The notes beneath the pieces are model-generated. The model was not told where the DNA came from and did not search any database. It saw nothing but the letters and a program-made list of their open reading frames with translations. Made by a program: the position numbers and the translations under genes. Positions 40,224-63,420 of a stretch of DNA of 64,000 nt are shown in pieces (the stretch's first letter is position 1; each line of letters opens with the position of its first letter). Location: contig JBKQPJ010000008.1 of assembly GCA_052326305.1 (NCBI GenBank), forward strand, positions 28,498 to 92,497, given 5' to 3'. The stretch comes from Thermoplasmata archaeon (GTDB taxonomy: Archaea > Thermoplasmatota > Thermoplasmata > Lutacidiplasmatales > UBA184).

Positions 40224-41186
40224 CTATCGGTCCGAGGCTCGGTGGTCCCCGCACGCTCCGCAGCGGGTCGCCCACGGCGAGTTCACGGTGCGGCACCGGT
40301 GGCAGACCCAGCGCGTGGTCCGGGAGGCGGAGAACGGGATCGCGTTGCGTCCCGTCGAGGGCAGGGTGGCGCCGGTCGGGGCCCCGGCCTCGCCCGGCGG
40401 TCCGCGGTCGGTCAGCTGGTAGGGCTGGTTCGCGGCCGCCCACTCCCATTGCTCCCGCTGGGTGAACGGGCCGTGACGGCCCCTCCAGAGGAGAAAGGCG
40501 CCGAAGAGGCTCGCGGCCGCGAGCCCGATCGTCGCGAAGAAGGCGTAGCCGCCGCCCCAGTTCAGCTTCGAGGCGCACTCGATGCACGAGCCCGGAATGA
40601 CCCCCGCGGTCACCCCGCCCAGGAACGACGGGCACGTCGTCTGGTTCGCCGAGAGGGCCGCACAGTAGCCCGCCGCCTGGGGGCCGGGACCGAGGGCCAC
40701 GGTGAACCCGACCATCCCGAGGGCGAGAAGACCGACCGCCAGCGCGAGGACGATCGCGAGGGTGAACTGCGCGCGGCCGAAGGAGTACCCGAGGAGCCCG
40801 AGCCCCAGCAGGGCCCCCGCGCCGAGGGCCCCGGCGACGATCGCGCCGAGACCTAGGTCGAGCGCCCCGTACGCCGACCCCACGACCCCCGCCACGGAGC
40901 TCGAGATGTTCGCGCAGGGGTCCGGGTGCCAGTCCCGCCAGCTCGAGCACGAGGCCGACCCCCCGGCGTTGAACTCGACCTCGACGTTCTGTACCTGTTC
41001 GTTGGTCAGCTCGCTGGCGGAGACCCTCGTGGCCGTCCACCAGGGTCCGTTGATCGACAGGGCCCCGAGGACCGCCGCGGCGAGGAAGAGGAGGACCGCG
41101 ATCCGGCGGTGGAGGTCCACGTAGTGGAACGGTCGATGGCGACCGTGTCCGGCGGATCCGTTCGTCGGCCCTGGTCCCCCCGACAC
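40224..41186 (-). CDS. multi-pass membrane protein with C-terminal zinc ribbon
   Basis: Five or six Gly/Ala/Leu-rich TM helices. C-terminal WVCHRCRTVNSPWATRCGACG zinc ribbon. Confidence 0.55.
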   Translation of the reverse strand: MSGGPGPTNGSAGHGRHRPFHYVDLHRRIAVLLFLAAAVLGALSINGPWWTATRVSASELTNEQVQNVEVEFNAGGSASCSSWRDWHPDPCANISSSVAGVVGSAYGALDLGLGAIVAGALGAGALLGLGLLGYSFGRAQFTLAIVLALAVGLLALGMVGFTVALGPGPQAAGYCAALSANQTTCPSFLGGVTAGVIPGSCIECASKLNWGGGYAFFATIGLAAASLFGAFLLWRGRHGPFTQREQWEWAAANQPYQLTDRGPPGEAGAPTGATLPSTGRNAIPFSASRTTRWVCHRCRTVNSPWATRCGACGDHRASDR

Positions 41187-41905: not shown

Positions 41906-42134
41906 GATCGACAGGACGGCAAGGCCGGGGCGCCCGGGAAGGACGCCGTTCACTGGTTGCGGGTGATCACCCGGCCGATGAGGCCGCCGAGGATGCCCCC
42001 GGCGATCAGGCCGACCACGAGGTAGATGATCCCCCAGAGGAGGGTGCTGAGCGAGAGGTAGCCGAGCTGCTGCAGGAGGAAGATCACGACGGCGCCGAGG
42101 ACGGCCCCCGAGCCCGCGGCGTTCGATGCCGCGC

Positions 42135-42890
42135 TCACGGGGATCCCTCCGGCGGGGTTACCGGCGGTGGGGGCGGAGACTCGGGGGTCGTCGCCCCTCC
42201 GGCCGCGGAACCGGTCTCGGACGGATGCTCCCACGGCGTCGGCGGCGAGCTCACCGTCTTCGGTCGCCGGCGCACGGAACGGCCGACCGTGAGGATCGAG
42301 TACAGCTCGACGAGGCCCAGCACGAGGAGGAAGATGATCAATCCGGAGGCGATGTGGTCCACGGCCGTCGCGTCGATGTAGAAGTTCTCGCTCCAGACGG
42401 TCGAGCCGTTCGCGTCGACGAGGCTCGCGGTCAGCAGGTAGACGCCCGCGAGCAGGTAGGTGAAGGTGCCCAGGCCCCAGTTCATCGTCCCGGTGCCGTG
42501 CTCGACCCCGCCCCCCGCGGGGTGGTTGACCGTCGACACCTGGTCGGTGGAGATGACCGCCCCGAAGTAGAAAGCCTGGATCCGGGCGAGCGTCACGTTC
42601 GGTCCCCCGGCGTGGATCGTATAGGTGAACACGTTGACGATCTGTTGATTGGCCGAGATCCCGAAGGCGTGCGCTTCGGTGCTCGCCGCGGAGAGGTTCG
42701 TGCCGCCCCACGTGGCGTGCGGACCCCCCAGGCCCGTGGTCGCCGGTGCCGCGAGGGCGTTCACGGTCGTAGGGCGCGCTCCGACCCCGGCCGCATCGGC
42801 CGCGGGCATCGCGATCAGCAGGGCGATCGAGGCCACGAGGACCCACTGGCCTGCGCGTCCGAACCCTAGAGGCCGACCCGATCTCGCCAT
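42135..42890 (-). CDS. hypothetical membrane-anchored extracellular protein
   Basis: Signal-like N-terminus (WVLVASIALLIAMPAADA), C-terminal TM (LIIFLLVLGLVELYSIL) and a Pro-rich cytoplasmic tail. A possible small TM ORF follows at about 41950-42138. Confidence 0.45.
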   Translation of the reverse strand: MARSGRPLGFGRAGQWVLVASIALLIAMPAADAAGVGARPTTVNALAAPATTGLGGPHATWGGTNLSAASTEAHAFGISANQQIVNVFTYTIHAGGPNVTLARIQAFYFGAVISTDQVSTVNHPAGGGVEHGTGTMNWGLGTFTYLLAGVYLLTASLVDANGSTVWSENFYIDATAVDHIASGLIIFLLVLGLVELYSILTVGRSVRRRPKTVSSPPTPWEHPSETGSAAGGATTPESPPPPPVTPPEGSP

Positions 42891-43006: not shown

Positions 43007-46000
43007 CTACGTCCCCGCCGGCGCGGCCCCCCGCAGGGCGGAGACGAGCCGATCGAGGTCCGCTTCTCCCAGGAGGGTCGGGGTGATGTGGATCCAGATC
43101 CGGGCGACGTGCTGGCGGGCCGCCACGTCGATGTCGCGGAGGAAGGCGCCGACGCGCTCGACCCCGTGCATGCCCACCAGGTACTCGATCCCCTCGATGA
43201 AGACGGCCGTCACCCCGTCGTCTTCGAACGCCCGGAGGAGGCTCTGGGCGAGCGCGGGGAGGTCCGACGGGCGGAGCGTCCGCGGCCGGTCGAGGTTCGT
43301 GAGCCAGTAGACCTCCACCGGACGGGGGCCGATGTGGACGCGGATCCGCTCGGGAAGCTCCCGGACGAGGGCGATCCCCTTGTGGCCGGCGGCCGTCGCG
43401 TCGAGGAACGGCTGCAGCGCGAGAAAGAGCGCCGACGAGAAGTCGATCTCGACCCCCGCGGGCGGGGGCGGTGGGATCTCGACCGGCACGGGGGCCGGAA
43501 CCGGCGACGGGACCTCCGCCCGGACCGGGGCGGGCTCGGGCGGAAGGGCTTCCGTCGGAACGACGGACGCCTCCTCCGGCATCACCTCCACCGGGGCCTC
43601 GGGGGGAGTCGCGGGCAGCGCTTCGGCGCCTGCCGCTTCCAGTACAGGAGCGGTCACCTCGCTTTCGAGCGGCGTCTCGGCCGGCCCGGCCTCGGGTCCG
43701 CCGGGAACTAGGTCGGAGGTCGGGGGTGAAGGGGAGGGCGGCTCCTCGCTGGCAATCATGGGGGTGGAGGGGGTGGGCTCCCGAGGCCCCTCGGGTGCGT
43801 CGGAGTCCACCGGTGGCAGCAAGTCGGCTTCCGGGGCCGGGGTCGGGGCCTCGCCGGCCGGTTCGCCGATCGCGCTGGAGTTCTCGGCCGGGGCCCGCGG
43901 AAGATCCGGGATTCCCACCTCGGCCGGGGGCGGTGCCGATTCGAACGCCTCGGCCATCGGCTCGTTCGGGGATTCTGTCGCCGGGGTGCTCGGCGGTACC
44001 TCCGAGGCTCCCGGTGGAGATAGGTCCTGAAGAGGCTCCGGGGCTGCGTCCATCGCTTCGCCCGCGGGCGGGGCCTCGAGCGGTGCCTCGGCCTCCTCCG
44101 CGCCAGCAACCGGCGGAACTTCCTCCGCCGCCGAACCGTTCTCCACCGCCTCGGTAGGGAGCTCGGCCTCGCCCCCCGGGGACTGCTCGCCAGGGAGCGG
44201 GAAGTCCTCCGGTTCCGTCGAGGGAGGACCGGTCTCGGTAGGCGGCGCGGGGCTGGCCTCGGGCGGCGCGACCGGTGGGGCCGAGGGCGTTTCCATCGCC
44301 TCCGAGGTCGGGGCAGTTATCGAGCTCGCCTCCGGGGGCGAGGGCGGGGTGACGGTCGCCTCGGACACCCCTTCCGTCCCCTCGGCGGGGGCGGGTTCGG
44401 GAGCGTCGACCACTCCTTCGGGCGGCTCGTCCCCTTCCGAAGAGGGAACCGCCGCGTCGTCGTCCAGGACCGGCTCGTCGATCTCCGGGGCGATCTCCAC
44501 ATCCGGTGAAAGTTCCGGGACCTCGGGGGGTGACTCGGACGCCGTGACCTCGATAGCAGCCTCCGCTGGGGCGGCCGACTCCAGTCGGTCGGGAGACGGT
44601 ACCGGCTCACGCTCTTCCGCGGACGGCTCCGGAGGAAGGTCTTCCTGCCCCAGGGGTTCCCCCGCGCCCAGCAGGAGCCGTTCCGGCGCGGCCTCGATCG
44701 GGACCGGCGGAATCGGATGCGCCGGCGGTTCCGGTGCGGCTGCCGGGGCGGGGGCCTCGGGCGGGGAGGCCGCGGGAGGCTCGGATTCGGCCGGCTGAAC
44801 ATCGCCCGCTTCGGAGCTCGGGGGGAGAAGAACCGGCGTTACAGGTGCCGCGGGACTAGGAGGTACGAGCACCGTTGGCGGCGCGGGTGAGGGAACGCGT
44901 TCCGGGGACGGACCGCCGGGATCGGGACTCATCACGGTCGGACGAGGATGGGCCGGGGCGGGGGGGACCGTTCGGCCGAGCTTCTTCCAGAGCGTCGCCG
45001 CCACCGGTCGTCCGAAGCCGGCGAGCGCCGCGACCTTCTCGAAGGGGGCTTCCCGGAACCCTTCCATCGACTGGAGCCCCGCGCCCCAGGCGATCGTGAC
45101 CTTCGCCGGCCCCAACAGGGGAACCGCGAAAAGTTCGTCGAGCTCCTGGCCGAGCTCCCGGATCGATTGTTCGCGTGCGATCACCTTCTCGTCGGAGTAA
45201 TCGATCTCGGCGGGCCCGGCCGCCGCGCTGGGGGGCGGCACTCGACGGCCGTCCGAGCAGACGGGGCGCCGCTTGGGAGCCCGGCGCGCTACCGGGACCC
45301 CAGGGAGGGAGACCGACCAGCGGGCCCCCGTTCGGGTACGGCCCTCGACCGCCGGGTGGGGCATCGCCTCGGGCGCCGCCCCGACGACCCGCAGCTCTTC
45401 GATATGCAGGTACTCGCCGATCGCGCCGGCCTTTTCCCGGAGCTCGGCGGCGAGCGGGTCGACCGCCGCGACGATCGCCACCCGTGGGGCCGGGCCGGTG
45501 GTCGATTCCGGGGCACCGAGACGACGCCGCACCCGGCGCACCAGCCAGAAGGCGTCGGGAGATAGAGGAGGTGGGGTGCTGGGCCGGTCGCCCTTTCCCA
45601 GCAGTTGCACGTACATCTCTCCCGAGGCGAACGGGGTGGGCGAGAACCCCTCGGGAAGCGTGTCGACCGTCGTCACCATCTCCGGTGTGATCGTCCTCGG
45701 CACGCCGTGGATGAACAGCGTCAGCTCCCGCGCCACGGCATCGGCGCTCCGGCGGGGCGGCATCCGCTCGATCAGATGGACGATCTGGGAGGCGAGCGCC
45801 GGATAGGCCCGCAGGATCTCGGACTCGACCGGGACGACGCGGCGCTGGCGGGCCTCCCACGGGACCTGGGGGCTCGTCACCTCGAGGCGGGAGACCCTGG
45901 CGAGGCGCTCGATCGTCACCCGGTCGGCGCGCAGGCGGCCGGCCACGGCCTCGTCCGGGAGCACGAGCGCGACCAGGGGCAGCACGGTCGCCGGCGCGAG

Positions 46001-48223
46001 ATGGTGGGCCCGGCGGAAGTCGTCGACCGCTGCGAGGACGGTCTGCCAGCGGTCCCACGCCGCCGAGAGCTCCTCGTCGGCCAGGGCGCGGTCCGCGCCC
46101 AGGTCGGACGACTCGAAGAGGCTCCGCGGCTCGGCGATGAGGCGGAGATGGACCGCCTCCGAGGTGAGCGGGGCGATCGGGGCGAGCGCGATCGCCGAGG
46201 CCCGGTAGAGGTAGATGAGCGTGCGCAGGGCGCTCCGCTTCGCGGCTGGGTTGCCCGGAAGGGCGAGCCGGGGGCGGATCATTTCCAGGTACTCGAGGAG
46301 GTCCCGCTCCAGGAACCGGAAGAGGTGGCGGTGCGCGGCCGCCGGCTCCCAGCGGTCGTAGTCGGCCAGGACCCGCAGGTGGGTCCGGGCCCATCGCGCG
46401 AGGATCGCCCGGTCCTCGACCTCGAGGTCGCGCGCGCTCGCGTCGGGCGGCTGGGCCCCTTCGCGCAGCAGGTCGCGTCCGCAGCTCGAGAGCAGCGCCC
46501 GGCTCTGGGAATAGAAGCGCTCGAGCCGCGCCTCCTCCTGACGGCACCGTTCCTCGAACGTCGTCGTCGATCCGCCCGCGCCGGCCGTACGGACGAAGGC
46601 GGAGCGGACGGCATCGGCGCCGTGCGCCCCGACGAGCCGGGGTAGGTCGACCCGGCTCACGGTCGGTTCGACGCTCAGGCCGAAGTCGGCGCTCGTCGCT
46701 TCGAGGCCGCTCATCGAGGCGAGGTGATGGACGAGCGTCGGGACCCGGCGCCGCTCGTTCGCGTAGACCCGGACGGTGTCGGCGGGGGAAAACGGATCGC
46801 AGCGGGCCCACGCCCCGAACGCCCCGCCGACCTCCGCGAGGAGCCGGCGGGCGACGAGCCGACGGGTCCCGCCGCAGGGGCAGGCGCGCGGACCGTCGGG
46901 AGCGTCGAGCCGTTCGCAGCGCGCGCACTCGAGCAGGGCGACGGCCTCGGGGTCGGAGGAGGGGATCGTCTCGCTCACCGGCCAGCGGGAGATCTCGATC
47001 TGCGCGATCGGCCGGTCGCGGGGCAGGAGCCGGGCGTACCGGTCCTTCTGCTCGGGGGCCAGGTGGTTCGGTTCGAGGCACCAGGCCCGTCCCGGGGTCC
47101 AGACCATCCGGTGCCCGCAGAGGGAGCAGTACGGGACCCCTCGGACGACGCGGAGGCGGGCGAGGACGGAGCCGCCCTCCATCAGATCGCGGCAGACGAA
47201 CTCGTTCGCGGTCTCGACGTCGAGCCCGGAGTACTTGTGCATCAACGTCGGGTCGAGCAATCCGCGCGAGGTGAGGAGCGGCCACCCGGCGATCCCGAGA
47301 CGCTCGGCGATCTCCGCGTCGGTCGGGCCGTGGCCGGGGACGAGCGGCACGATCCCCGTGCCCGTGTCCCCGACCTCGAGGTCCGCCTGGATCGTGCCGG
47401 CGGGCGGGTCGAGCGAGCCGCCGATCGGGAACTCGTGCCGGAGCGGGTAGGCGTACGCCCGTCCGACCCACTCCCGGCCCGGCCGCTCCTCGCGCACCTC
47501 GAGCTCCACGTCGGGCAGCCAGGCGTGCAATCGGGCGAGCGAGCCGTGGGACGTGAGGAGGAGCGCGCTCGATCCCTTGTGCCGGTACTCCACGACCGAG
47601 TAGGGGACGTCCGGGTGGACGAGCAGGGCGCTCGCCCCGAGGAGGCGCCACGGGGCGTCGACCCAGACGAGGGCGTCGACGGCGGGGTCGGTGCCCTGCA
47701 GGGGGAATCGCACGAGGAACGTGTCGCCGACCTCCTTCTGGTAGATGATCCGCTCGGGCGTGCGCGGGATGCGGCAGGAGAGGCAGACCCGCAGCGGGCC
47801 GTCCCGCGCGACGAGCACCCCCTTGCGCGCGAGCCGCGCGACGATCGCCTGGACCCCGGCCTGTCGGTCGGCGGTATCCCACGGCCGGTCGCCCGCGCCG
47901 CCGGTCCACAGGGCGAGCGACTCGAGCAAGGGGCCGAGGCCCGCGGGGGTCGCGTTGGCGCCGTGCCGCTCGTCGCGGAGCGTTCCGACCACGCCGCGGC
48001 GGCTGAGAAGGAGGTGGCGCGCGTCCACGTCCGCGGCGACCGCGCGGTGCGCGACCATCTCCGCGGGCTCGCCCGGGGTGAACGACCCTTCGAACTGACG
48101 TACGATCGGCCCATCGGTCGGCCCGAGGGTCCCGCCGGGGGGGGGCAATCGCCGGGACCTCCAGAACGTGCGGATCTCCGGTTCGAGCGTGCGAACGGTG
48201 AACCGCGGCGTCTCCTCCGGCAT
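43007..48223 (-). CDS. catalytically degenerate IleRS-like protein fused by a long Pro/Glu/Ala-rich linker to a DUF835-like C-terminal domain
   Basis: ATG at 48221-48223 ([21 protein letters not shown]).
- Class-I aaRS N-terminus with HIGH replaced (PAEMVAH).
- CP1 editing-domain motif [24 protein letters not shown].
- Cys knuckles CSLCGH...WCLE and CARCERLD...CPCGG.
- The KMSKS position reads DFGLS, followed by GADAVRSAF.
- Anticodon-binding-like helical region.
- About 600 aa of low-complexity P/E/A/S linker.
- C-terminal 130 aa ([20 protein letters not shown]...[14 protein letters not shown]...[10 protein letters not shown]) resembling DUF835. Confidence 0.6.
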
Positions 48224-48371
48224 CGGTCCCGCGGGCTCCCTCGACCGAGGGAGCGACCGGGGCGGGAATAAACCCTCGTTCGAGCCGAACCGCTGTCGGT
48301 CGGTCCGGCCGCTCGCCTCCGGAGCAACTCTTATGCCGCCGGTCATCTCCGTGGCGTCCGAGGAGACAGGA

Positions 48372-48758
48372 ATGGCCTGGACGCAGCAGGAGGTCCGGGA
48401 GCTGAAGGAGGGCCGGTACATGCTCATCGACGAGGAGCCGTGCCGCATCATCAGTATCCAGACGTCGAAGCCCGGGAAGCACGGAGAGGCGAAGGCGCGG
48501 ATCGATGCGGTCGGGGTGTTCGATGGCTCGAAACGGAGCGTCGTTTTCCCCGTCAAGCACAAGGTCCAGGTGCCGCTGATCGGCAAGAAGCAGGCCCAGG
48601 TCCTGTCGATGACCGACTCGGAGGTCCAGCTGATGGACCTCGAGTCCTACGAGACGTTCATGCTGCCGCTCGACGCGGAGACGAAGGCGGCGGTCTCTCC
48701 CGGAGCGGAGGTCCAGTACGTTGACGCGATGGGGAAGCGCCGGATCACCCGGACGTGA
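48372..48758 (+). CDS. eif5a: translation initiation factor 5A (aIF-5A)
   Basis: ATG at 48372 preceded by ggag. Hypusination loop [14 protein letters not shown]. 128 aa. Confidence 0.9.
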
Positions 48759-48882: not shown

Positions 48883-51800
48883 GTGTCCGGTCCGGGAGGC
48901 GTCGGACCCCTACCATCGTCCCGGTTGACCCGGATCCTTCAGGAGAAGGCGGAGGCGCTTCGCAAGAGGCGCCAGACCGCCGAGGTCGCCCTGAAGGAGG
49001 CCGAGGAACGGGTGGGCCAGCTCGATCGCTTGGGGATCTCCCCCGCGGGGGCGGCCGAACGGCTGCAGCAGCTGCACGAGCTCGTCCGCCGGTCGGACTG
49101 GGACCAGGTCGAGACCAGCGCGCAAGCGCTCCTCGCGGAGCTCGCCGCCGCCGTTCCCGGGCTCCTCGAGGAACGTCGCGTCCGCACGGGGGAATCGCTC
49201 GGGCGGCTTACGGGCCTCGGCATCCCCATCCCGCCCGAGCTCGCGACCGAGCTCGAGGCGCTCGCCCGCCCCGCGGCGGGCGGCCCGTGGACCGATTCGC
49301 TCGTCCGCCTGATGAAGGTCGAGGACGGGATCCGCCACGCCGCGACCGCGTACCTCGAGGGCGTACGGGGCCGCGCGATCTCGGTCGCCCGATGGTCCGG
49401 CCTCGGGCCCGAGCGGCTCGCCGAGTTCGAGCGCCTCCTCCCCAACACGGTCGACACCACCCGCGACGACGCCCTCGCCGACGCGGTGACGACGGTCCAG
49501 CGGAACCTCGTCGACGGCCTCCCGGAGGCCGCCGAGCGGCATCGCACGGTGCGGGAGAACGCCGAGCGCCTCCGTGCGACCGCCGAGGAGCTCGGCGCCG
49601 TGACCGGGCCGCTCGACGCCGCCCTCCGGGACGACGCGGCCGCCCCGATCGACCGCTGGCCGGAGACGGTGGCGGCCATCGACGCGGCGATCCCCGAGGT
49701 CGGCGAGGGGCTGCGCGAACGTTCGCGCCAGGTCCTCGAGGGCCTGCGCGGGTCGCTCGGCACGGTCGCCGAGTTCGAGGTCGACGCCGCCGGGGCGGTC
49801 GCCGCGGTCGAGTCCGCGCTCGCCCGGCTCCCGGCCACCGGACCGCTCGAGATCACCGGCCTCCTCGCGGAGGCACGGGCCGCGGCGGAGGAGCCGATCG
49901 TGACGGTCGTCGCGGGGCTCCTCGACGAGGTGCGTCCCCGCATCGCGGGGGCCCGTCGCCTCGGGCGCGACCCGAGCGAGGTGTTCTCGGCGATGAACCG
50001 GGCCCGCGAGGCCCTGCGCCTCAAGATCTACTCCGAGGCGCTCGCCGCCGCCCAGGAGGCCCTCGACCGCGTCAGCGGGCTCACCGAGGACCTCGACGCC
50101 GCCCGCGGGGAGCTCGGCACCCTGCAGGAGATGCTCCTCAAGTTCCGGGCGGCGGGGTTCCCGACCGAGCCGTTCGACGCCCCGGTGGCGCGCGTCCGCG
50201 CGCTCCTCGACCGGGCCGACGTTCCCGCCGCCCGGCAGGCGCTCCAGGAGGCGGTCCACCTCGCCGGCAAGGAGGCGCTCCGCTTCTTCGTCGACCGTTG
50301 GGCAACCCTCGACAAGACCCGCGCGTACGCGCACGAGCACGGGTTCGTCTCCCCCGAGACGGAGCAGGTCCTTGGGGAGGCCCGTGCCCTCCTCGACGCG
50401 GGCGACCTCGGCGGCGCCGCCGAGCTCCTCGCCCGGTTCGAGGTCGAGCTGCGTTCGAGCGCCGGGCCGTACGTCGCCCGGCGCGTCGAGGAGATGGAGA
50501 AGGCGTTCGTCGAGATCACCGACGGCGCCCTGACCGCTCCGGTCCGCCGCCTCCTCGCCGACGCGGACGTCACGCTCCGGGTCAAGCAGGACGTCGTCGG
50601 CTCGGTCGAGAGCCTGCACCGGGCGGAGCGGGAGTTCTCCGCCGTCTTCGGCGCCCACGCCTCCGCCCTCGTCGAGGGCCTCGAGTCGGAGGTCCGCGTC
50701 CTCAGCTCGATGGGCGGGACGAGCGACGAGATCCAGCGGCAGATCGACGAGGTCCAGCAGATCTTCAACATGGGCGATTTCGTCCAGGCGTCCCGCGCGT
50801 CGCAGGAGATCCGGACCCGCGCGCGCCAGCAGCAGCTCCTCCGCTCCGACGAGGCGATCTCCCACGCCAAGCTCGCGCTCGTCGAGCTCGAGCCGATGGG
50901 GCTCGACCTCACCTCCCTCCGCCCGCTCCTCGACGACGCGCAGTCGGCGGCGCGCGAGAACCGCTACCTCGACGCCTACCGCACGGCCACCGAGCTCGAG
51001 GAGGCCGCGGGCCGGGGCCGCGCCGCGGCCCAGACGGTCGTCGAGCGGATCTCCCGGCTCCAGGACCAGCTCGGCCGGCTCCATGCGAGCGGCGCGGACC
51101 CCTCGCCGTTCTACGAGGGGCTCCGCGAGGGGCGCGAGCAGCTGAACGCCCTTCGGTTCGACCGCGCGCGGACCCTGCTCGACGACCTCGACGGGCGCAT
51201 CTCCGCCGAGGCGGCCCGGATCGAGACCGAGCGGCTGCTCGGCGAGGTCGGTCTCCTGGTCGAGGAGGGCCGGCAGCTCGGGGCGCCGGTGGAGCCGATG
51301 GTCCGCCGGCTCGAAGGGCTCCAGACCGAACGGCATACCGCCGCGCCCGAGGCGACCCGCACGGGTTCGGTGCTCCTCCATGACGAGATCCTCGCCGTGC
51401 TGCGTCCGATCCTCGAAGAGAACCTCCGGTCGCTCGAGCGCGACCTCGACATCGCCCGCTCGGCGGGCGTGCCGCTCGACAAGATCGTCCCCCCCCTCGC
51501 CGAGGCCCGCCGGCGCGTGGCGCTTCCGGTGCCGACCGGCGCGGCGGCGCTGATCGACGAGGTCCGCAGCGCCCTGATCAGCACCCGCGGGTTCGTCGAG
51601 CACGCCGAGCGGGCGGCGAAGCGGGTGCACGAGGCGCTCGCCCAGGCGGACCTGTTGCGCGTGGAGGTCGGGGAGCTGCGCGCCCGGGCGGAGCGGTTCG
51701 ACACCTTCCTCGCCGGTCGGGAGTACGTACGGGTCGTCGAGCTCGCGGGCCCGCTCGAGCGGGAGCTGCACCAGGCGACGTACCGTCACGTGTCGAAGAC

Positions 51801-53376
51801 GCTCGCCGGCTTCCAGGCGACGGTCACCCAGCTGCGCCGCGACGGGGCGAACACCTCCGTCGCGGAGAACCTGCTGCACCAGGCCCGGATGTCGCTCGAC
51901 GAGGGCCGGCCCCTCGATTCCATCCAGCTCGCCGCCCGCAGCGAGCGGGAGCTCGAGCGGGCCGACCTGCAGCACAAGCTCGCGGAGGGGTCGATCGAGG
52001 CGGCCGAGCGGGCGATCGCGGGGGCGCTCGCCGAGGGGGCCGTCGCGACCGAGGCCCAGGATTCCCTGCGGAGCGCGAAGTCGTCGTACGTCAAGGGATC
52101 GTACGCCGACGTCTTCGAGCGGATGATCTTCATCTCGGACCTCGTCGCGACGGTGCGGGACGGCCTGCGCCGGGCCCGCGAGGCGATCGCGGTCGCCGAC
52201 CGGCAGCTCACCGAGGCGAAGGGCCTCGGCGCCGAGGCGGCGGACGCCACCGGCGAGCTCGCCGAGGCGCGCCACGAGCTCGACGCCGGCCACTACTCTC
52301 CGTCGGTCCGCCGGGCGCGCGAGGCGACCGAGATGGCCCGCTGGGCGATCGACCGCGCGTTCGCCGCCCCGCTCGGGGAGCTCCGGCGCCAGGTCGACGC
52401 GGTCCGCGCCGAAGGGATGGCGGGAGAGCTCGAGCCGCTCGAGGCGCTCGTCACCGGTGCCGAGGCCGCCGCCCGCGCCCACCAGTGGACCGAGGCGCGC
52501 GGCATGATCCTCCAGGCCGAGGACGCCGCCCGCCGTCTGTTCGAGGAGACGCTCGACGGACGCTGGCGGGAGGTCGAGGCCGACGCGAAGGAGACCGGGC
52601 CGGTGTCGCCCTCGGAGACCGCCCGGCGGGCCGACGTCGCGAGGAAGCTCGGAGAGCTGCGCTCCTCCCGGGACGTCGGGGGGGCCTTGCGCCTCGTGCA
52701 CGAAGAGCTCGAGATCGTCCGCGGCCAGCGTAAGGAGGTCGTTCTGCGCGCGGTCGCCGCGCTGCGCGACCGCCTTTGGGTCGGCGAGCGGCTCGGCGTC
52801 GACACGACGCCGGCGATGCAGACGTTCGGGGAGGCCCGCGCGTCCGCCGAGGCGGGGCGCCTGGGCGAGGCGACCGAGCTCCTGGCCCGGTCCGGTGCGG
52901 CCCTCGCGGAGGCGGTTCGGGGCCCGCTCGCCCGCCGGCGCAAGGAGCTCGCCTCCGAGGTGACGTTCGCCGAGGAGGGGCTCCACGTCAGCGTCGGGTC
53001 GGTGAAGGAGGAGCTGCGCGCCGCCGACGAGCTGCTCGGCGCGGGTCGGCTCCTCGACGGCGGCGCGAAGCTGCTCAAGATCGAGGAGGACCTGAACCTG
53101 CGCAAGTCGCTCCACCGCGAGCTCACGAACCTGCACTTCCTGATCGACGCGGCGCTCGGCCGGGCGGAGGAGCGGCAGATCGACACGTCGCGGGCCCGCG
53201 CGCTCCTCGACGAGTCGCTGCGCCTGCGCCCCGTCGACTACCCGGGGGCCCTCCAGAAAGCGCGCGAGGCGCTGAAGCTCCTGCAGGCCGACGGGGTCGT
53301 GATCGGGGAAACGGCGGCGACGGCCGCTCCCTCCTCGACCCCGTTCTGGCCGTTCCGGCGACCGCCGCCGTCCTGA
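48883..53376 (+). CDS. giant (1497 aa) alpha-helical repeat protein, hypothetical
   Basis: Continuous ORF rich in A/E/R/L with at least 12 recurrences of a module like [E/R]AR.LLD.GD...A..LL spaced about 90-110 aa apart. No enzymatic motif. TATA-like attaataa at about 48797 upstream. Confidence 0.6.
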   Translation: MSGPGGVGPLPSSRLTRILQEKAEALRKRRQTAEVALKEAEERVGQLDRLGISPAGAAERLQQLHELVRRSDWDQVETSAQALLAELAAAVPGLLEERRVRTGESLGRLTGLGIPIPPELATELEALARPAAGGPWTDSLVRLMKVEDGIRHAATAYLEGVRGRAISVARWSGLGPERLAEFERLLPNTVDTTRDDALADAVTTVQRNLVDGLPEAAERHRTVRENAERLRATAEELGAVTGPLDAALRDDAAAPIDRWPETVAAIDAAIPEVGEGLRERSRQVLEGLRGSLGTVAEFEVDAAGAVAAVESALARLPATGPLEITGLLAEARAAAEEPIVTVVAGLLDEVRPRIAGARRLGRDPSEVFSAMNRAREALRLKIYSEALAAAQEALDRVSGLTEDLDAARGELGTLQEMLLKFRAAGFPTEPFDAPVARVRALLDRADVPAARQALQEAVHLAGKEALRFFVDRWATLDKTRAYAHEHGFVSPETEQVLGEARALLDAGDLGGAAELLARFEVELRSSAGPYVARRVEEMEKAFVEITDGALTAPVRRLLADADVTLRVKQDVVGSVESLHRAEREFSAVFGAHASALVEGLESEVRVLSSMGGTSDEIQRQIDEVQQIFNMGDFVQASRASQEIRTRARQQQLLRSDEAISHAKLALVELEPMGLDLTSLRPLLDDAQSAARENRYLDAYRTATELEEAAGRGRAAAQTVVERISRLQDQLGRLHASGADPSPFYEGLREGREQLNALRFDRARTLLDDLDGRISAEAARIETERLLGEVGLLVEEGRQLGAPVEPMVRRLEGLQTERHTAAPEATRTGSVLLHDEILAVLRPILEENLRSLERDLDIARSAGVPLDKIVPPLAEARRRVALPVPTGAAALIDEVRSALISTRGFVEHAERAAKRVHEALAQADLLRVEVGELRARAERFDTFLAGREYVRVVELAGPLERELHQATYRHVSKTLAGFQATVTQLRRDGANTSVAENLLHQARMSLDEGRPLDSIQLAARSERELERADLQHKLAEGSIEAAERAIAGALAEGAVATEAQDSLRSAKSSYVKGSYADVFERMIFISDLVATVRDGLRRAREAIAVADRQLTEAKGLGAEAADATGELAEARHELDAGHYSPSVRRAREATEMARWAIDRAFAAPLGELRRQVDAVRAEGMAGELEPLEALVTGAEAAARAHQWTEARGMILQAEDAARRLFEETLDGRWREVEADAKETGPVSPSETARRADVARKLGELRSSRDVGGALRLVHEELEIVRGQRKEVVLRAVAALRDRLWVGERLGVDTTPAMQTFGEARASAEAGRLGEATELLARSGAALAEAVRGPLARRRKELASEVTFAEEGLHVSVGSVKEELRAADELLGAGRLLDGGAKLLKIEEDLNLRKSLHRELTNLHFLIDAALGRAEERQIDTSRARALLDESLRLRPVDYPGALQKAREALKLLQADGVVIGETAATAAPSSTPFWPFRRPPPS

Positions 53377-54611: not shown

Positions 54612-54713
54612 GCTCCCGTAGTCTAGTGGTCAAGGATAGAGGCCTCTCGAGCCTTTGACGCGGGTTCAAAACCGGGCGGTTAGGGCCGTCCGGGGAAACT
54701 CCCGCCGGGAGCA
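54612..54713 (+). tRNA. tRNA-Glu (anticodon CUC) with a putative 29-nt intron in the T-loop (position 59/60)
   Basis: Manual fold:
- Acceptor GCTCCCG / CGGGAGC.
- U8 A9.
- D arm GTCT-AGTGGTCAAG-GGAT.
- Anticodon stem GAGGC / GCCTT with loop CTCTCGA (CTC at 54646-54648).
- T-stem GCGGG (54660-64), TTCAAA (54665-70), then T + CCCGC (54700-05) after 54671-54699.
- Discriminator A at 54713.
- No encoded CCA. Confidence 0.6.
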
Positions 54714-54745
54714 CTTACCACCGCGGGTAGTGCCACGTTACCTTG

Positions 54746-54805
54746 GGCCCCCGGAGGCCGACCCGAAGGATCAGCGGGCCTTTCACGAGTCCGGAAACGG
54801 GTGGA
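54746..54805 (+). repeat. direct repeat family R2, copy 1 (about 60 nt, immediately downstream of tRNA-Glu)
   Basis: cccccggaggccgacccgaaggatcagcgggcctttcacgagtccggaaacgggt is about 80 percent identical to 59157-59212. Confidence 0.7.
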
Positions 54806-55117
54806 TTGGCGAAGCAGGGGTTCCCTCCCTGCTCGTTCGGGGGCATTCCGGTTGCGTCAGAAACCCGCGAACGCCGCTGCTATACTCGGCCAAGGTCGCC
54901 TGTGAGCGCTGGGAGCGTAGCTGAACCTTCCACGCGACCGACAATTCAGCCCGACTGCCCGTGGTAGGTTCTCGCGAGGGGATGTGGACCTCGCCGCGGC
55001 GGAGCACGGTCCGACGGGCTCTGCCTCCCTCCCAATCCTGTTCGAGGTGGCAAGTTCCCAATCACGAAGGTAATGCTAAAGTATAGCACGCTGGTGCGCT
55101 GGCTCGCGGGATAGACG

Positions 55118-56467
55118 ATGCGGGGTCAAATCCGAAGTGCCGAGATCTGGGTCGTAGTCGTTATCGCGGTGATGGTGTGGGCGTCGGCGGGGGTCCTGGG
55201 TCTTGAGGCGGGGCACGCCCTTTCGCGAGGTGCCGTGCACAACCTTCCCTCGGTAGATCGAAAGCTTGGGGCTATCCTCCTGTCGGAGAACGAAGTATCG
55301 AGCCCCTCGGCGAGTCCACGACTCGACCCCGCAGCCGCGCAAGTCTACGCGGGCGAACTCACCAGCCCCAACGCGCAACTAAACGGATTCTTCGGAAGCT
55401 CAGTGGCGATCAGCGGCACGACGGTCGTCGTGGGGGCTTGGGGTGAGTCGGTCTCGGGTCAGAACAATGCGGGCCACGCCTACACGTTCAACGCCAGGAC
55501 GGGCGCCCTGGTCGCGACGCTTACAAGCCCCAACGCTCAGACGGGTGGGCTCTTCGGCCGCTCGGTGGCGATCACCGGCACGACGGTCGTCGTCGGGGCC
55601 CCCCAAGAGACGGTCTCGGGTCAGGGCGATGCGGGCCATGTCTACACGTTCAATGCCAAGACGGGCGCGCTGATCTTGACGCTTACAAGCCCCGACGCGC
55701 AACTCAACGGATTTTTCGGAAGTTCGGTGGCGATTAGCGGCAAGACCGTCGTGGTCGGGGCTTACGGGGAGATGGTCTCGGGTCAGACCGATGCAGGTCA
55801 TGTCTACACGTTCAACGCCAAGACCGGCGCGTTGGTCTTGACGCTCACCAGCCCCGGCACGCAGTCCTACGGTATCTTTGGCGGCTCGGTCGCGATCGGG
55901 GGCACGACGGTCCTCGTCGGGGCCGACGGCGAGACGGTCTCGAGTCTGAGCGGTGCGGGCCATGCCTACACGTTCAACGCCAAGACGGGCGCATTGATCT
56001 TGACGCTCACGAGTCCCAACCCGCAACTCAATGGATACTTCGGCTACTCGGTGGCGATCGGGGGCACTACGCTCGTCGTCGGAGCTGCCGACGAGACGCT
56101 CTCCGGGGGTCTGATCGCTGCGGGCCATGCCTACACGTTCAACGCCAAGACCGGCGCGCCGATCTCGACGCTCGCCAGCCCCAATGCCCAGGTCGACGGG
56201 GCTTTCGGCGGCTTGGTGACGATTAGCGGCAGGACCGTCGTGGTGGGAGCCTACGGCGAGGCATTCTCCGGCCTGAGCCAGTCGGGCCATGCCTACACGT
56301 TCAATGCCAAGACCGGCGGACTGATCTTGACGCTCACCAGCCCCAATGCACAGACTTCAGGAGTCTTCGGCAGCTCGGTGGCGATGAGCGGCAAGACTGT
56401 CGTGATCGGGGCAGATTTTGAGTCGGCCCTGGGTCAGAGCGGCGGGGGACATGTTTACCTGTGGTAG
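55118..56467 (+). CDS. secreted FG-GAP repeat (integrin-alpha-like beta-propeller) protein
   Basis: Signal peptide, then eight tandem 46-aa units (LTSPNAQ.NG.FG.SVAI.G.TVVVGA..E.VSGQ..AGH.YTFNAKTGAL...) giving 138-nt DNA periodicity from about 55330 to 56440. Confidence 0.8.
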   Translation: MRGQIRSAEIWVVVVIAVMVWASAGVLGLEAGHALSRGAVHNLPSVDRKLGAILLSENEVSSPSASPRLDPAAAQVYAGELTSPNAQLNGFFGSSVAISGTTVVVGAWGESVSGQNNAGHAYTFNARTGALVATLTSPNAQTGGLFGRSVAITGTTVVVGAPQETVSGQGDAGHVYTFNAKTGALILTLTSPDAQLNGFFGSSVAISGKTVVVGAYGEMVSGQTDAGHVYTFNAKTGALVLTLTSPGTQSYGIFGGSVAIGGTTVLVGADGETVSSLSGAGHAYTFNAKTGALILTLTSPNPQLNGYFGYSVAIGGTTLVVGAADETLSGGLIAAGHAYTFNAKTGAPISTLASPNAQVDGAFGGLVTISGRTVVVGAYGEAFSGLSQSGHAYTFNAKTGGLILTLTSPNAQTSGVFGSSVAMSGKTVVIGADFESALGQSGGGHVYLW

Positions 56468-56587
56468 GTTGGCTACGAGCGGGGCCCCGAGACATCCGCC
56501 AGATGCGAGGAGACCCGCTTATCGGCGAGGGATATCCGGTCATCCCGACGCGATCGACCTGCGCCTCCATCGCGCCCGAACGGGCCC

Positions 56588-57226
56588 TTGTCACCAGGGA
56601 GGATCTGCTCGACTTCGGAATTGACAGGTAACGCTTGCCTGGACCACCTGGTGAGACTCTTTCGCAAGGTGTGGTTTGGCGAGCCAATCGATTCGCAGGG
56701 TTCTTCATCAAGACCAATGTCATGGTCCCTCGCCGAGGGGGCTGCTTCGATGACGAAACACTGGCCGGGTCCTACCTACGAAGTGCGAGCGAACTTCAGA
56801 GCTCCGTTGAAGTTTGTGTACCGGTGGTGCACCGATTACACGCCGAAGGACGCGAGGTACGAGTCGGAGCATTACCAACGACGCATCCTACGGCGGTCAG
56901 TTCGTGAGGTAATCTATGAGGATTTGGAGGATACCAAGGAAGGTTGGTATTGGACCCGACACGTGGTTCGCCTCTACCCGCCGAATCGCTGGCACTCCAA
57001 CTCGGTTGGGAGCCACCGGGAGGTCTCCCTGGAGTATCGCCTCTCCCCGCTCCCCGGGGACCGGACCCAGCTAATCCTCACGGCTCGGCGGCGTCCGTCG
57101 GGCGTCGGAGGGAAGAATCCTCCGAAATCGCAATGGGAGCGTTCCATCACGGTGGCATGGAAGAGGTTTGGCCGGGTTCTCGAGCGAGACTATCGGAAGT
57201 CCTCACGGCGGCGCGCACGAACCTAA
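56588..57226 (+). CDS. SRPBCC (START/Bet v1-like) domain protein
   Basis: From about the internal Met (MTKHWPGPTYEVRANFRAPLKFVYRWCTDYTP...WYWTRHVVRLYPPNRW...) the fold pattern matches polyketide-cyclase/SRPBCC proteins. The N-terminal 55 aa may not be translated. Confidence 0.5.
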   Translation: MSPGRICSTSELTGNACLDHLVRLFRKVWFGEPIDSQGSSSRPMSWSLAEGAASMTKHWPGPTYEVRANFRAPLKFVYRWCTDYTPKDARYESEHYQRRILRRSVREVIYEDLEDTKEGWYWTRHVVRLYPPNRWHSNSVGSHREVSLEYRLSPLPGDRTQLILTARRRPSGVGGKNPPKSQWERSITVAWKRFGRVLERDYRKSSRRRART

Positions 57227-57347
57227 TCGGTACTCACCCGCCGGCGACCTCGATGATCGCTGAGAGGGAGTGAGTTCCAGGTCAGTGCGCCTTTCTGCCC
57301 ATAGGTGTTCGAATCGGGCGGGTTCTCTAAGGGGTAGTCGAAGGGCT

Positions 57348-57401
57348 GGGTTCTCTAACGGTGCGGGATGCCGCCGTTCTCGCACAACGCGTGCGGATCG
57401 C
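57348..57401 (+). repeat. direct repeat family R3, copy 1 (GGGTTCTCTAACGGTGCGG... about 54 nt)
   Basis: gggttctctaacggtgcgggatgccgccgttctcgcacaacgcgtgcggatcgc. A partial extra copy gggttctctaa lies at 57320-57330. About 80 percent identical to 63367-63420. Confidence 0.7.
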
Positions 57402-57928
57402 GGTCCTCCCGAGAGCGCGCGCGTCGCCCGCCACTGGTGCGAAGGTGTTCGGGCGTCCGGCTACCTGTCCGTTGAGGAAGGCGGGGCTGCGATCGCAACT
57501 CAGGTCGTTGTGCTTCCCCCCGACACGCCCCTGACGGTCCGAGGCCTTCTGAGGACTACGGACCAATCAATCGGGCTGCCGGTTCAGGTCCCGCCGAAGG
57601 CACTTCTCGATGGGCGTAGGCACAACCCCTTTTGAACCCGAGCGCGAACCGGTTCTTGCTCCGTAACCTGGCCGTGTTCGACTTTTCTCGTACGTATCGA
57701 TCGCCCGTCCACAGACTTTCGAGTTCTGACAGTATCCGCCCCCCACACAATACGGTGATTACGCGTCCTACGCACCAGGTACTCGACAGTGCTCTCCCAT
57801 CCTAGGCCACCCGTGCGACAGACCCGAGGGCGAGGCAACGTCGTACTATTCCAGGAGGCCGCGCCGTCACGATGAGGGTGGCCTCCCTTCTTTTCAGCAG
57901 CGCCGCACCCGTCGGTCCGAAGGGCTAC

Positions 57929-58537
57929 TCAACTTGGAAAAAACTCCGCCACCATTTGGCTGCCCCAGAAATGATTGAGGGAGGCCCCCGCGCCGTCGTC
58001 GACGTTCACATAGAAAGTGTACGAGCCCGCTGCGACGGTATCCGAGAACACCACTGAGGCGGTGAGCTGGTAGTCACCAGTCGGCTGGCTTGAAGGAACG
58101 ACATCCCAGGATGCGGGTTGCGACACAGCGCACGAAGCCGCGGATGTGGCGATAACGAGCTCCACTTCGTCCGAGGTGCCGGAGACGTGGCTGAAGGAGA
58201 GAATGGAGTCGTCAGTCACCAGGATCGTACCTGCCGACGGAACTGTAATGGAGACTAGACCACCTTGTTCGTTTACGCACTGCGACTGATTGAATTCAGT
58301 ACGGGTGAAGGTGTAGGAGCTGGCCATGACGATGCCCGCTCCGGCCGGACCCGTGGCTCCGGTGTGCCCCGAGGCCGTTAGAGCGATACCGAGAGCCGAG
58401 CCCCCGAGGACTAGCGCGACAACTCCGAGAACAATAGGGAGCCTACTAGGGGAGATCGCCCCGAGACTTCGAGGATTGGGTGGCGACACCGGTCGGTCGG
58501 CTGGGATAGGACTGCTCTCGGGCGACGCGGCGGACAT
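57929..58537 (-). CDS. membrane-anchored extracellular protein, paralog family A
   Basis: Ser/Pro-rich N-terminus, one TM (LPIVLGVVALVLGGSALGIAL), then an about 150-aa ectodomain ending ...SQMVAEFFPS. Paralogous to 61369-61986. Confidence 0.55.
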   Translation of the reverse strand: MSAASPESSPIPADRPVSPPNPRSLGAISPSRLPIVLGVVALVLGGSALGIALTASGHTGATGPAGAGIVMASSYTFTRTEFNQSQCVNEQGGLVSITVPSAGTILVTDDSILSFSHVSGTSDEVELVIATSAASCAVSQPASWDVVPSSQPTGDYQLTASVVFSDTVAAGSYTFYVNVDDGAGASLNHFWGSQMVAEFFPS

Positions 58538-59156
58538 GCACGCTCAGCGAAGTCCATACCTTAGACCTTTCGCAAAGGTCAGGGCGAGGGAATTGAGCGC
58601 TCCCTGACCGCCGGGATCATGGTGACCCACGACGAATAGGGCTTAGGTAGACTCAGGTCCTTGCGGGGCCACTCACCTCGCCCATGGATTAGAATCGACG
58701 TGACCCAGAACAACGGGATCTTCTTTCATCCGATTGCAGATTTGCCAAACGCTGCACAGAGGCTGTTGGGTCGAGGATTCAAACCTTTTCGCAAACACGA
58801 AGCCACCCTCGGGACCCCATTGTGATGGAAATCGCGCCCGTCAACGACACTTGTTCGCTCAGGGAGATCGTGACTCCAAAGGCCGAGGCGAGCGTCACGA
58901 ACCCGAAGGGAACCGAACCCCTCGTAGTCAACCCCTTAGGTTGAGACGGGTCGCGAACTTGCGAGCCTGCCGCCGTATTGAATTCGGGCCGGTTGAGTAT
59001 CGGGCGGACCGCTCGCCCACGGGCTCGACCTTTGTCTATGGGACGGGTTCTCTATGGGCCCGGTCCACCGACCCAGCCGAAAAGCTGATGGGGTATGGTC
59101 CCCCCCGGGAGCACTCCATTTTGGGGGGAATGCCTACCCCATATCCGCGCCCTGAG

Positions 59157-59212
59157 ACCCCCGGGGGCCGACCCGAATGATCGACGGGCTCTCCTCGAGT
59201 TGGGAAACGGAT
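59157..59212 (+). repeat. direct repeat family R2, copy 2
   Basis: cccccgggggccgacccgaatgatcgacgggctctcctcgagttgggaaacggat. Followed immediately by a tandem duplication. Confidence 0.7.
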
Positions 59213-59283
59213 CCTTCCTCCTAGGTACCTTGGCACGGCGGGGGCCGGATCCTTCCTCCTAGGTACCTTAGCGCGGTGGGGCC
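59209..59283 (+). repeat. tandem duplication, 2 x 37-38 nt (ggatccttcctcctaggtacctt[g/a]gc[a/g]cgg[c/t]gggggcc)
   Basis: Two adjacent near-identical units read directly from the sequence, in a non-coding stretch. Confidence 0.75.
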
Positions 59284-59750
59284 ATCTTGATGGTGGGAGG
59301 GGCCTTCTGTTTCTCATGCGACGCTCTTTCCGGTTCCTGCTTCCGTGTCTTCTGATCGTTGCGGGGGCGATCTTGATCGTCGGCGCACTGACCATTCGTC
59401 CTCCGCCCTGTCGCTGTAGCAGTGAATTCGGGTGCGATCCATGTACGGTCCCGGTCAACACAACTCCGTACGTACTGTTGGCGGGAGCGGCGTGCGCTAC
59501 CCTTGGAGGAGCATGGCTGGGATGGGGCCGACGTAGACATCGCCCTACTCGAGTTGCCCCGATGGGACAAACCCGTGGGCTGTCCTAGGAGCCCCAGGCG
59601 CAGAGATTTTAGTGACGGCGCCCTAACCCACGGGGGGATTTGGGAGCTGATGCGGGACGAACTTGCATGGTTCGACTTCCCCCGAGCACGATGGTTCTTC
59701 GCTCTCTTCACGATCGCAGGCGGGGTACTGGTCGCCGCGTCGGTCCTCTC

Positions 59751-60452: not shown

Positions 60453-60799
60453 CGAGCGGAGCGCCTTGTGGATCGGCGTAAACAGGTCCTCGGTCGCTGT
60501 CAGTGGAAGCTCCCCCCGCCCCTAACTCGAGGTACGGCGGGGACTGTCGTTCGGCTACGTCGTCCACCCACCGCCGAAGGAAAAGGTCGCCTCAACCGGG
60601 TCGAATTCGGATGCGTTTCCGGGAGACGGTCACCGACCGGGCAGGTGGCGAAGATCCATCGCGTCGGCCTCTCGCCTACTGAGGCGTGGGGTCACGACCG
60701 CCGGAGGATTCGAACCTCGGCAGACGGATTCCCTTCTGTGGTCAGGGCTCCTGTACTTTTTGGAGGCGCGGTCCCTGACCCGTCAGGGGCCTTGGGTTC

Positions 60800-61192: not shown

Positions 61193-61368
61193 TGAGGGGA
61201 CCCCCTCGCCGGACCCCGTCCGTAGCTCGTGGTCGCCTCGGTCGTCCCTCCTCCGGAATCGGGTAGGTCAACGAGCCGCTCCCCGGCCCTCACGTGGTGG
61301 CGGACCCCAAGGACGCCCCGCCGAGGGACATCGGCTCGCCAGCGAGCGCTCAGGTCGTCCGTCGAAAC

Positions 61369-63366: not shown

Positions 63367-63420
63367 GGGTTCTCTAACGGTGCGGCACACCGGCGTTCTC
63401 GCGAAACGCGTCCGGATTGC
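63367..63420 (+). repeat. direct repeat family R3, copy 2
   Basis: gggttctctaacggtgcggcacaccggcgttctcgcgaaacgcgtccggattgc. Lies in a convergent intergenic gap, as does copy 1. Confidence 0.7.

Follow-up and report, generated by a model that had tools for sequence, protein, structure and literature searches.

Why would an archaeon keep, at full length, a relative of isoleucyl-tRNA synthetase (IleRS) whose aminoacylation chemistry must be dead, and why should this protein end in a KaiC-like domain? The question is raised by one gene in a stretch of 64,000 nucleotides from a Thermoplasmata archaeon (GTDB lineage Lutacidiplasmatales, UBA184; assembly GCA_052326305.1, contig JBKQPJ010000008.1, positions 28,498 to 92,497), which we call the window. 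The gene, pseudo-IleRS in what follows, encodes 1738 aa at 43007-48223 and lies on the minus strand, which corrects an initial annotation made from the sequence alone. Its product joins an IleRS-derived body, a (HhH)2 module, a long acidic spacer and a C-terminal DUF835 domain. We argue that it is very probably a functional pseudo-synthetase, descended from a fused enzyme in which IleRS was followed by HhH and by an inactivated KaiC domain ("iKaiC"). What such a protein does is harder to say, and we weigh below a sensor or adaptor mechanism against its alternatives.

The reading frame is continuous. There are zero internal stops across the open reading frame (ORF), and an independent gene caller gave the identical 1738-aa product on a metagenome-assembled genome (MAG) contig at NCBI (GCA_052325905.1) and in two independent Logan assemblies. 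In the low-complexity stretch the annotated frame alone is open, the remaining two frames having 8 and 2 stops. The third codon position has the highest G+C content throughout, at 0.70-0.83 in the low-complexity part and 0.86-0.98 in the folded parts.

The IleRS-like body, its lost motifs and its KaiC-like tail

An AlphaFold2 model of aa 1-1090, built with 69 homologs (predicted local distance difference test score, pLDDT, 84.9; predicted template modelling score, pTM, 0.78), matches the type-2 IleRS 8c9d (Foldseek, E 1e-43) and the yeast IleRS-tRNA structure 8wnd (E 1e-34) over ~1100 columns, with weaker matches to ValRS and LeuRS structures. The alignment also spans 8c8v/8c9d, i.e. IleRS2 with its C-terminal tRNA-binding domain resolved. 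A match of this extent to full-length IleRS means that the IleRS body is complete down to its C-terminal domains. It retains the full archaeal-type architecture, with CP1, both zinc knuckles, the helical anticodon-binding domain and the C-terminal domains, and the eight cysteines of the zinc-knuckle pairs (C147/C150, C366/C369, C433/C436 and C448/C450) are invariant in the family. In sequence searches, Pfam places Anticodon_1 at aa 604-748 (E 7e-12) and gives no match to tRNA-synt_1 (PF00133) in the 1738-aa protein, even at E<=1. The NCBIfam ileS model (TIGR00392) finds a fragmentary match of 94.7 bits, against a cutoff of 621.4, the valS/ileS models match partially over the anticodon-binding region, and phmmer matches to solved structures are restricted to CP1 (1ile, E 8e-14).

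The motifs of the active sites tell a different story from the fold. We read their states from an alignment to genuine archaeal IleRS and counted them in 118 family members. The HIGH site (H-I/V-G-T in archaea) aligns to A-E-M-V, none of the 118 keeps H-[IVLM]-G-[HTN], and the ~35-residue PGxDxHGLPIE segment that follows the HIGH helix is deleted. So is the KMSKS loop (a gap of ~16 residues; KMSKS-like pentapeptide in 0/118), and the second Rossmann half has ERRRVP in place of DQxRGWF. With neither HIGH nor KMSKS in any of the 118 members, and with segments of the core missing, the protein must be unable to carry out aminoacylation and, on the evidence of its residues, cannot be a conventional synthetase. 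At the editing site, the Thr-rich peptide WTTTPW has become WVDAPW (retained in 0/118) and the editing His of GTGxVH-APGHG has become Pro (His in 0/118), which leaves the next Asp (GHGxxD), invariant as D302, as the sole editing residue retained. Every residue set for activating and transferring isoleucine is lost, and probably the editing set as well.

The initial annotation had proposed the IleRS domain order in the N-terminal part, the loss of HIGH (read as PAEMVAH) and the resulting loss of aminoacylation chemistry, and all three hold. Of the three Pfam families that it named, Anticodon_1 and DUF835 are matched and tRNA-synt_1 is not. The alignment to archaeal IleRS that it suggested bears out both motif losses and shows the editing Thr and His gone and the Asp kept; its reading of the KMSKS position as DFGLS, however, mistakes a deleted loop for a substituted one. 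Two properties of the body as a whole stand beside these losses. CP1 is the most constrained region, with at least 90% conservation in 41% of its columns versus 16-23% elsewhere. The family body is also ~20 charges more basic than canonical or intact tailed IleRS: its median net charge is +11, versus -9 in canonical and -12 in intact fused IleRS bodies.

Between the body and DUF835, a linker of 600 aa had been described. An acidic, proline-rich low-complexity spacer is indeed present, but its disordered part proper has only ~490 aa, and the remainder includes what is probably a folded (HhH)2 module that had been overlooked. This region forms five helices in the AlphaFold2 model. HHH_5 (PF14520) is precomputed in many family members and Pfam does not detect it in the window's own sequence; aligned with hhalign, the family profile and the HHH_5 region of intact fused IleRS match with 94% probability (E 1e-7) at the same position. 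The spacer is 27% Pro, 16% Glu and 16% Ala, has no Lys and carries a net charge of -88 (family median -52). Its length varies in the family from 93 to 604 aa (median 395), and the composition is retained despite this variation. A tandem-repeat origin of the spacer was considered and rejected, as no tandem repeats were detected.

The C-terminal domain had been assigned to DUF835, correctly: Pfam PF05763 matches aa 1610-1726 with 56.3 bits, above its gathering score of 33.1, over profile positions 16-132 of 136. The AlphaFold2 model of the last ~160 aa (pLDDT 93) has a RecA-type fold that Foldseek matches to FlaH/ArlH (4yds, E 5e-6) and to KaiC (E 3e-4). The P-loop is replaced by the four-residue loop LPER, and Walker A (G-x4-GK[ST]) occurs in 0/118 members. 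As modelled, the domain is a P-loop-less KaiC-like fold, predicted to be nucleotide-blind. This agrees with the literature, where DUF835 is described as an inactivated KaiC that serves archaeal response regulators as output domain (PMC5847659). In that work the interaction of DUF835 with KaiC-family ATPases is a proposal only, and it is the single paper in the searchable literature to mention the domain.

Distribution and origin of the family

Is this arrangement, which the initial annotation called unfamiliar, an oddity of one genome? A search with aa 1-1086 found at least 175 database clusters, all full length at 48-75% identity and nearly all of 1370-1850 aa with the same architecture; an exhaustive HMMER search, clustered at the 50% level, gave ~100 representatives with identities as low as 33%. 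The arrangement is hence already well populated in databases, though unstudied. Scanning one genome per GTDB species, we found 78 loci, all in MAGs of Thermoplasmata archaea from soil and peat, which include UBA184, AcS1-45 and AcS1-67, members of Candidatus Lutacidiplasmatales. Genomes of this order have ~69% GC and ~2.1 Mb (PMC9287336), and the composition of the window fits. In at least 78 species of Ca. Lutacidiplasmatales, purifying selection has maintained the gene. In databases its members go by names as different as 'valyl-tRNA synthetase' and 'DUF835 domain-containing protein', a spread that signals an annotation problem.

The best matches outside the dead family are not ordinary IleRS but IleRS-DUF5915-HHH_5-DUF835 proteins. 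These have tRNA-synt_1 at E 1e-95 to 1e-133, HxGT, KMSKS-type loops, WTTTPW and GTGxVH. They are ~1320-1430 aa long, common in Methanomassiliicoccales and other Thermoplasmatota, and annotated as isoleucine--tRNA ligase (e.g. P0204, P0205, P0321, P0342 and P0347). They have short linkers without enrichment in Pro/Glu (4-10% Pro in the tails). Two of the intact tailed genes lie in a housekeeping context of SecY, ribosomal protein genes and pdxS, which resembles the plain IleRS locus of other high-GC Thermoplasmatota, while the dead gene is located elsewhere. Further, low-GC Thermoplasmatota have tailed forms that have decayed in part or in full, which NCBI names only 'class I tRNA ligase family protein'. 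We found no publication describing the intact tailed IleRS in the searchable literature, and a review of aminoacyl-tRNA synthetase (aaRS) duplicates (2022, PMC9437257) lists no such fusion.

Two observations on the tailed proteins may be added. Apparent housekeeping IleRS with the (HhH)2 and DUF835 tail, near SecY and ribosomal protein genes, were seen in Methanomassiliicoccales and some other Thermoplasmata, at L091 (6001-10002) and L092 (6001-10164) and as P0321, P0330, P0349 and P0355. Some cluster members of the tailed IleRS have only 989 aa though they lie on long contigs, so that tail-less or split variants may exist.

When targets were truncated at residue 1100, so that the DUF835 tail was gone and with it most of the HhH module, intact tailed bodies scored a median of 243 bits with the hidden Markov model (HMM) of the dead family and plain ones 182 bits, a ranking by similarity. 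Because of this ranking, the homologous HhH module, the intermediate decayed forms and the contrast between a housekeeping and a separate locus, we infer that a tailed IleRS-HhH-iKaiC gene was duplicated and that one copy probably lost catalysis, retained a non-catalytic role alone and moved to a new locus. Far from a one-off, the dead gene represents the most decayed branch of an IleRS-HhH-iKaiC family that spans the phylum and is unstudied.

A tRNA sensor and its alternatives

If the body no longer makes isoleucyl-tRNA, it may still recognise RNA. The basic IleRS-like body could still bind tRNA(Ile), a related RNA or a 3'-end ligand; the pairing of a basic body with an acidic spacer in the same chain is a hint of RNA binding. 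The P-loop-less KaiC-like domain would oligomerise or dock onto KaiC-family ATPase hubs, as has been proposed for the DUF835 of archaeal response regulators; a KaiC-family ATPase is encoded in the window itself, at 8581-9387. The polyanionic spacer of 93-604 aa, proline-rich and probably polyproline II (PPII)-like, would be a long and flexible tether; it might also mimic RNA and so inhibit the basic body, as a competing pseudo-substrate. Together, the parts would report or couple the status of tRNA(Ile) and translation to KaiC-type signalling, following the logic of the HisRS-like domain of GCN2. Taken as a whole, the statement that this is a non-catalytic IleRS paralog acting as sensor or adaptor falls somewhat short of an even chance, and the tRNA-sensor/adaptor mechanism for KaiC-type signalling is, by itself, more tentative still. 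One might speculate that Thermoplasmatota wire IleRS into KaiC-type signalling at large, the enzyme of Methanomassiliicoccales itself carrying iKaiC and the dead paralog of Lutacidiplasmatales sensing uncharged tRNA(Ile) or amino-acid starvation, which we consider quite unlikely.

Several points weigh against the sensor. Its three key contacts, namely tRNA binding, DUF835 oligomerisation and contact with KaiC, are putative. The editing Thr and His are gone, and the strong conservation of CP1 could reflect another ligand. The conserved neighbourhood contains no KaiC-like gene, the nearest being at a distance of 34 kb in the window, and archaea commonly have KaiC paralogs. The model leaves aIF5A, a ~1400-aa helical protein and two small membrane proteins, all introduced below, unexplained. 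On the side of descent, the higher HMM score of tailed bodies is a similarity ranking and not a phylogeny, and a few plain IleRS score up to 244 bits. Finally, a canonical ileS was not found in the genomes of family members among the matches listed, in 10-kb flanks and with one genome per species, which is not evidence of absence.

The neighbourhood is strikingly stable. aIF5A lies divergently upstream of pseudo-IleRS in all 71 loci with enough flank (median gap 132 bp), followed by a ~1400-aa helical protein lacking any Pfam family in 53/53 loci and by a 147-aa protein in 48/48. The AT-rich box GGAATAAACCC between the two divergent genes may act as a promoter element. Polyproline stalling, and hence dependence on aIF5A, was considered as the reason for this adjacency and is unsupported: the spacer has one PPP run against ~9 expected from its composition, the lone exception being PPPPP directly before DUF835. 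On the other side of the gene, relatives encode a ~250-aa protein with signal peptide and transmembrane (TM) segment and a ~60-80-aa peptide with two TM segments, overlapping by 4 nt, as does the pair in the window, whose 251-aa member (42135-42890) has a Pro-rich tail and neither of whose members has a Pfam family. Gene calls recover the pair in 5/5 homologous loci, and tblastn its members in at least 35/51 and at least 25/49 loci. Whether it belongs to the function of pseudo-IleRS is uncertain. Another AT-rich box lies upstream of 42890, and such promoter-like boxes suggest that the downstream genes are transcribed separately. These neighbouring proteins have no informative Pfam family. In the window, the protein directly after aIF5A (48883-53376, plus strand) has 1497 aa and no Pfam family and may belong to the same block; read from its sequence alone, it is all-helical and coiled-coil-like.

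This stable context lends itself to another reading, in which the body binds a protein (aIF5A, the ribosome or the ~1400-aa helical protein) independently of RNA and is tethered to a DUF835 anchor that might sit at the membrane through the membrane proteins encoded downstream. In most proteins that have it, DUF835 is the cytoplasmic part of a membrane protein, genes for membrane proteins do lie downstream, and the spacer would reach ~150 nm if its 490 aa were fully extended; the constancy of aIF5A and of the large helical protein fits as well. Yet the body has become more basic, not less, and has kept the anticodon-binding domain and both Zn knuckles. Moreover, a housekeeping block that stays syntenic across an order says little about physical interaction, and the promoter-like boxes suggest separate transcription for the downstream genes. 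We regard such a scaffold as rather unlikely.

The conservation of CP1 suggests a third reading. The protein might be an enzyme centred on CP1, i.e. a trans-acting deacylase or editing factor or an aminoacyl-tRNA-dependent transferase comparable to SbzA, which would work through the conserved CP1 pocket and the tRNA-binding body, with the DUF835 tail localising or regulating it. CP1 is by far the most conserved region, and the Asp of GHGxxD, which in IleRS editing holds the amino group of the substrate, is invariant as D302. Two related loci have a gene for a DTD2-type tRNA deacylase at a distance of a few genes. An IleRS-like protein with non-canonical chemistry is known in SbzA (PMC9437257). 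Against these stand the change of WTTTPW to WVDAPW and the loss of the editing His in 118/118 members, the failure to identify a new invariant catalytic-looking cluster beyond the residues conserved in canonical CP1, and the lack of biosynthetic genes nearby, which together make the enzyme improbable. The deacylase genes in question, annotated as DTD2-type D-aminoacyl-tRNA deacylase (PF04414), are found ~8 kb upstream of pseudo-IleRS at L004 (1404-2363) and L006 (1169-2029); none was seen in gene calls at the window's own locus.

Could the protein be the cell's working IleRS after all, with unconventional catalytic residues? A canonical ileS is absent from the 64-kb window and was not found in the assemblies or contigs of family members among the matches listed, with the best canonical match (P0225) and a profile of 29 high-GC Thermoplasmatota IleRS as queries. 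The assemblies of P0225, P0280, P0335, P0347, P0325 and P0303 share no whole-genome shotgun (WGS) prefix with the 78 species loci (one genome per species), nor did we find an ileS entry in the supplementary tables of the Lutacidiplasmatales paper. This failure nevertheless reflects the scope of the search (matches listed, 10-kb flanks, one genome per species), in an order whose MAGs are reported to be up to 97-98% complete (PMC9287336). The protein itself speaks clearly against the idea: HIGH and KMSKS are missing in 118/118 members, the KMSKS loop, DQxRGWF and GxDxHG segments of the aminoacyl-adenylate pocket are deleted or replaced, and tRNA-synt_1 is unmatched. A working synthetase is very improbable.

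Last, a sequencing or assembly error, i.e. a frameshift that merged two genes within a GC-rich low-complexity spacer, a type of sequence prone to indels and the explanation that the initial annotation wanted excluded first, is rejected with near certainty, since the same product comes from three independent assemblies, the other two frames are closed in the spacer, more than 110 homologs from Illumina and long-read MAGs have the one-ORF architecture with spacers of 93-604 aa, and the architecture recurs in at least 175 clusters and 78 GTDB species; the single-ORF fusion of an IleRS-derived body to DUF835 stands.

The rest of the window contains several features that we record for their own sake (those around the gene itself are in Table 1). 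A KaiC-family ATPase (8581-9387, minus; PF06745, E 5e-57) is preceded by a HerA/DUF87-like ATPase (9413-11743, minus) and followed by a weak KaiC-like protein of 194 aa (7993-8577, minus; E 1e-6), possibly inactivated; 7993-11743 is a candidate KaiC hub in a genome that encodes a DUF835 protein. The interval 3380-23480 is rich in translation and housekeeping genes (L15e, L10, L1, aIF2-alpha, Trm56, a Nop56/58-like protein, two DRG/Obg-type TGS GTPases and PAC2). A 320-aa protein with multiple TM segments and a C-terminal RanBP-type zinc ribbon (40224-41186, minus; PF00641, E 5e-5) is found by tblastn in 5/85 related loci. We found no tRNA(Ile) gene or known RNA element near pseudo-IleRS, the sole tRNA being a tRNA-Glu at 54.6 kb. 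Right after this tRNA-Glu(CTC) (54612-54699) the G+C content drops from ~0.73 to 0.60-0.67, and the ORFs of 54612-64000 mostly lack Pfam families, with the exception of an FG-GAP/PQQ-repeat protein (55118-56467), a hemerythrin-like protein (59751-60452) and a glyoxalase-like protein (60800-61192). A genomic island that integrated at the tRNA gene could account for this part.

Table 1. Pseudo-IleRS, its predicted parts and its immediate neighbours in the window.
Feature	Residues (aa)	Coordinates	Strand	Basis or details
Pseudo-IleRS-(HhH)2-spacer-DUF835 gene	1-1738	43007..48223	minus	1738 aa, ATG at 48223, stop codon 43007-43009
N-terminal class I Rossmann half, remnant	1-135	47819..48223	minus	Alignment to archaeal IleRS, AlphaFold2 model
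CP1 (editing-domain) fold and zinc hairpin	136-385	47069..47818	minus	phmmer, conservation, motif states
CP2/CP3 zinc knuckle (C433, C436, C448, C450) and second Rossmann half remnant	386-560	46544..47068	minus	Invariant Cys, alignment
Helical anticodon-binding domain	561-745	45989..46543	minus	Pfam Anticodon_1, NCBIfam partial matches
C-terminal domains of archaeal/eukaryotic (type 2) IleRS body	746-1000	45224..45988	minus	Foldseek; Pfam DUF5915 in intact relatives
(HhH)2 module, hairpins LLGPAK and LAGFGR	~1010-1086	44966..45196	minus	AlphaFold2 model, hhalign
Acidic Pro/Ala/Glu spacer, non-repetitive	1087-1575	43499..44965	minus	Composition, open frame
DUF835, inactivated KaiC/FlaH-like RecA-fold domain	1576-1738	43010..43498	minus	Pfam PF05763, AlphaFold2, Foldseek
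Shared intergenic region aIF5A/pseudo-IleRS		48224..48371		AT-rich box GGAATAAACCC at 48263-48275, candidate TATA element
aIF5A		48372..48758	plus	Pfam IF5A-like_N E 1e-15, eIF-5a E 6e-6
Downstream pair		41950..42890	minus	251-aa signal-peptide/C-terminal-TM protein (42135-42890) and 62-aa two-TM glycine-zipper peptide (41950-42138), 4-nt overlap

Comparison with known systems

The sensor reading, if true, would give archaea a counterpart of GCN2 or RelA in the form of an uncharged-tRNA(Ile) sensor; archaea are not known to have RelA/SpoT-type or GCN2-type sensors of amino-acid starvation or tRNA charging. GCN2 is a eukaryotic eIF2-alpha kinase with a HisRS-like domain for which tRNA binding has been demonstrated. 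Like pseudo-IleRS, it joins a catalytically dead aaRS-like module to a signalling module in one polypeptide, and the proposed logic of reading tRNA status is alike. Yet the GCN2 module is class II and HisRS-like, with an active kinase as effector, whereas here it is class I and IleRS-like, the effector is an inactivated KaiC and tRNA binding is inferred. More broadly, the dead gene and its probable intact tailed ancestors are a candidate link between an aaRS scaffold and the KaiC hubs proposed to dominate archaeal signalling, and the intact, partly decayed and fully dead forms offer a natural series for the passage of an essential enzyme to a pseudoenzyme. Even if the function were merely structural, this would be a well-documented lineage-specific family of pseudo-synthetases.

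The closest system is the intact tailed IleRS, which has the IleRS body, DUF5915-type C-terminal domains, (HhH)2 and DUF835 in the same order, but keeps the catalytic and editing motifs, a short linker and a housekeeping locus. The nearest archaeal precedent for an inactive class I duplicate is LeuRS-I of Sulfolobaceae, beside which stands LeuRS2 of Halobacteria. According to the aaRS review (PMC9437257, citing Weitzel 2020 and Fang 2014), these are duplicates within the Ile/Leu/Val subclass with no or little aminoacylation, and LeuRS-I binds tRNA, has an acidic C-terminal region and a disrupted CP1, and still makes adenylate. In pseudo-IleRS, it is the synthetic site that has been dismantled and CP1 that is kept best, and the LeuRS duplicates, unlike the dead IleRS, lack an iKaiC or HhH tail. 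Other aaRS paralogs with non-translational or regulatory roles are HisZ, PoxA/EpmA and SbzA (PMC9437257). The active site still works in EpmA and SbzA, HisZ serves as a regulatory subunit of class II type, and a KaiC-like domain is joined to none of them. The substrate of EpmA is EF-P, to which the neighbouring aIF5A corresponds as homolog outside bacteria, but nothing here points to modification of aIF5A.

On the side of the tail, the DUF835 response regulators (2018, PMC5847659) have the same Pfam family at the C-terminus of a multidomain protein with an N-terminal input; that input is REC or PAS, whereas here it would be a synthetase body of ~1000 aa followed by a spacer of, typically, several hundred residues. 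FlaH/ArlH and KaiC (4yds, 1tf7) share the RecA/KaiC-like fold of the C-terminal domain but bind ATP through Walker A, where the dead family has the loop LPER in the window and a P-loop in 0/118 members.

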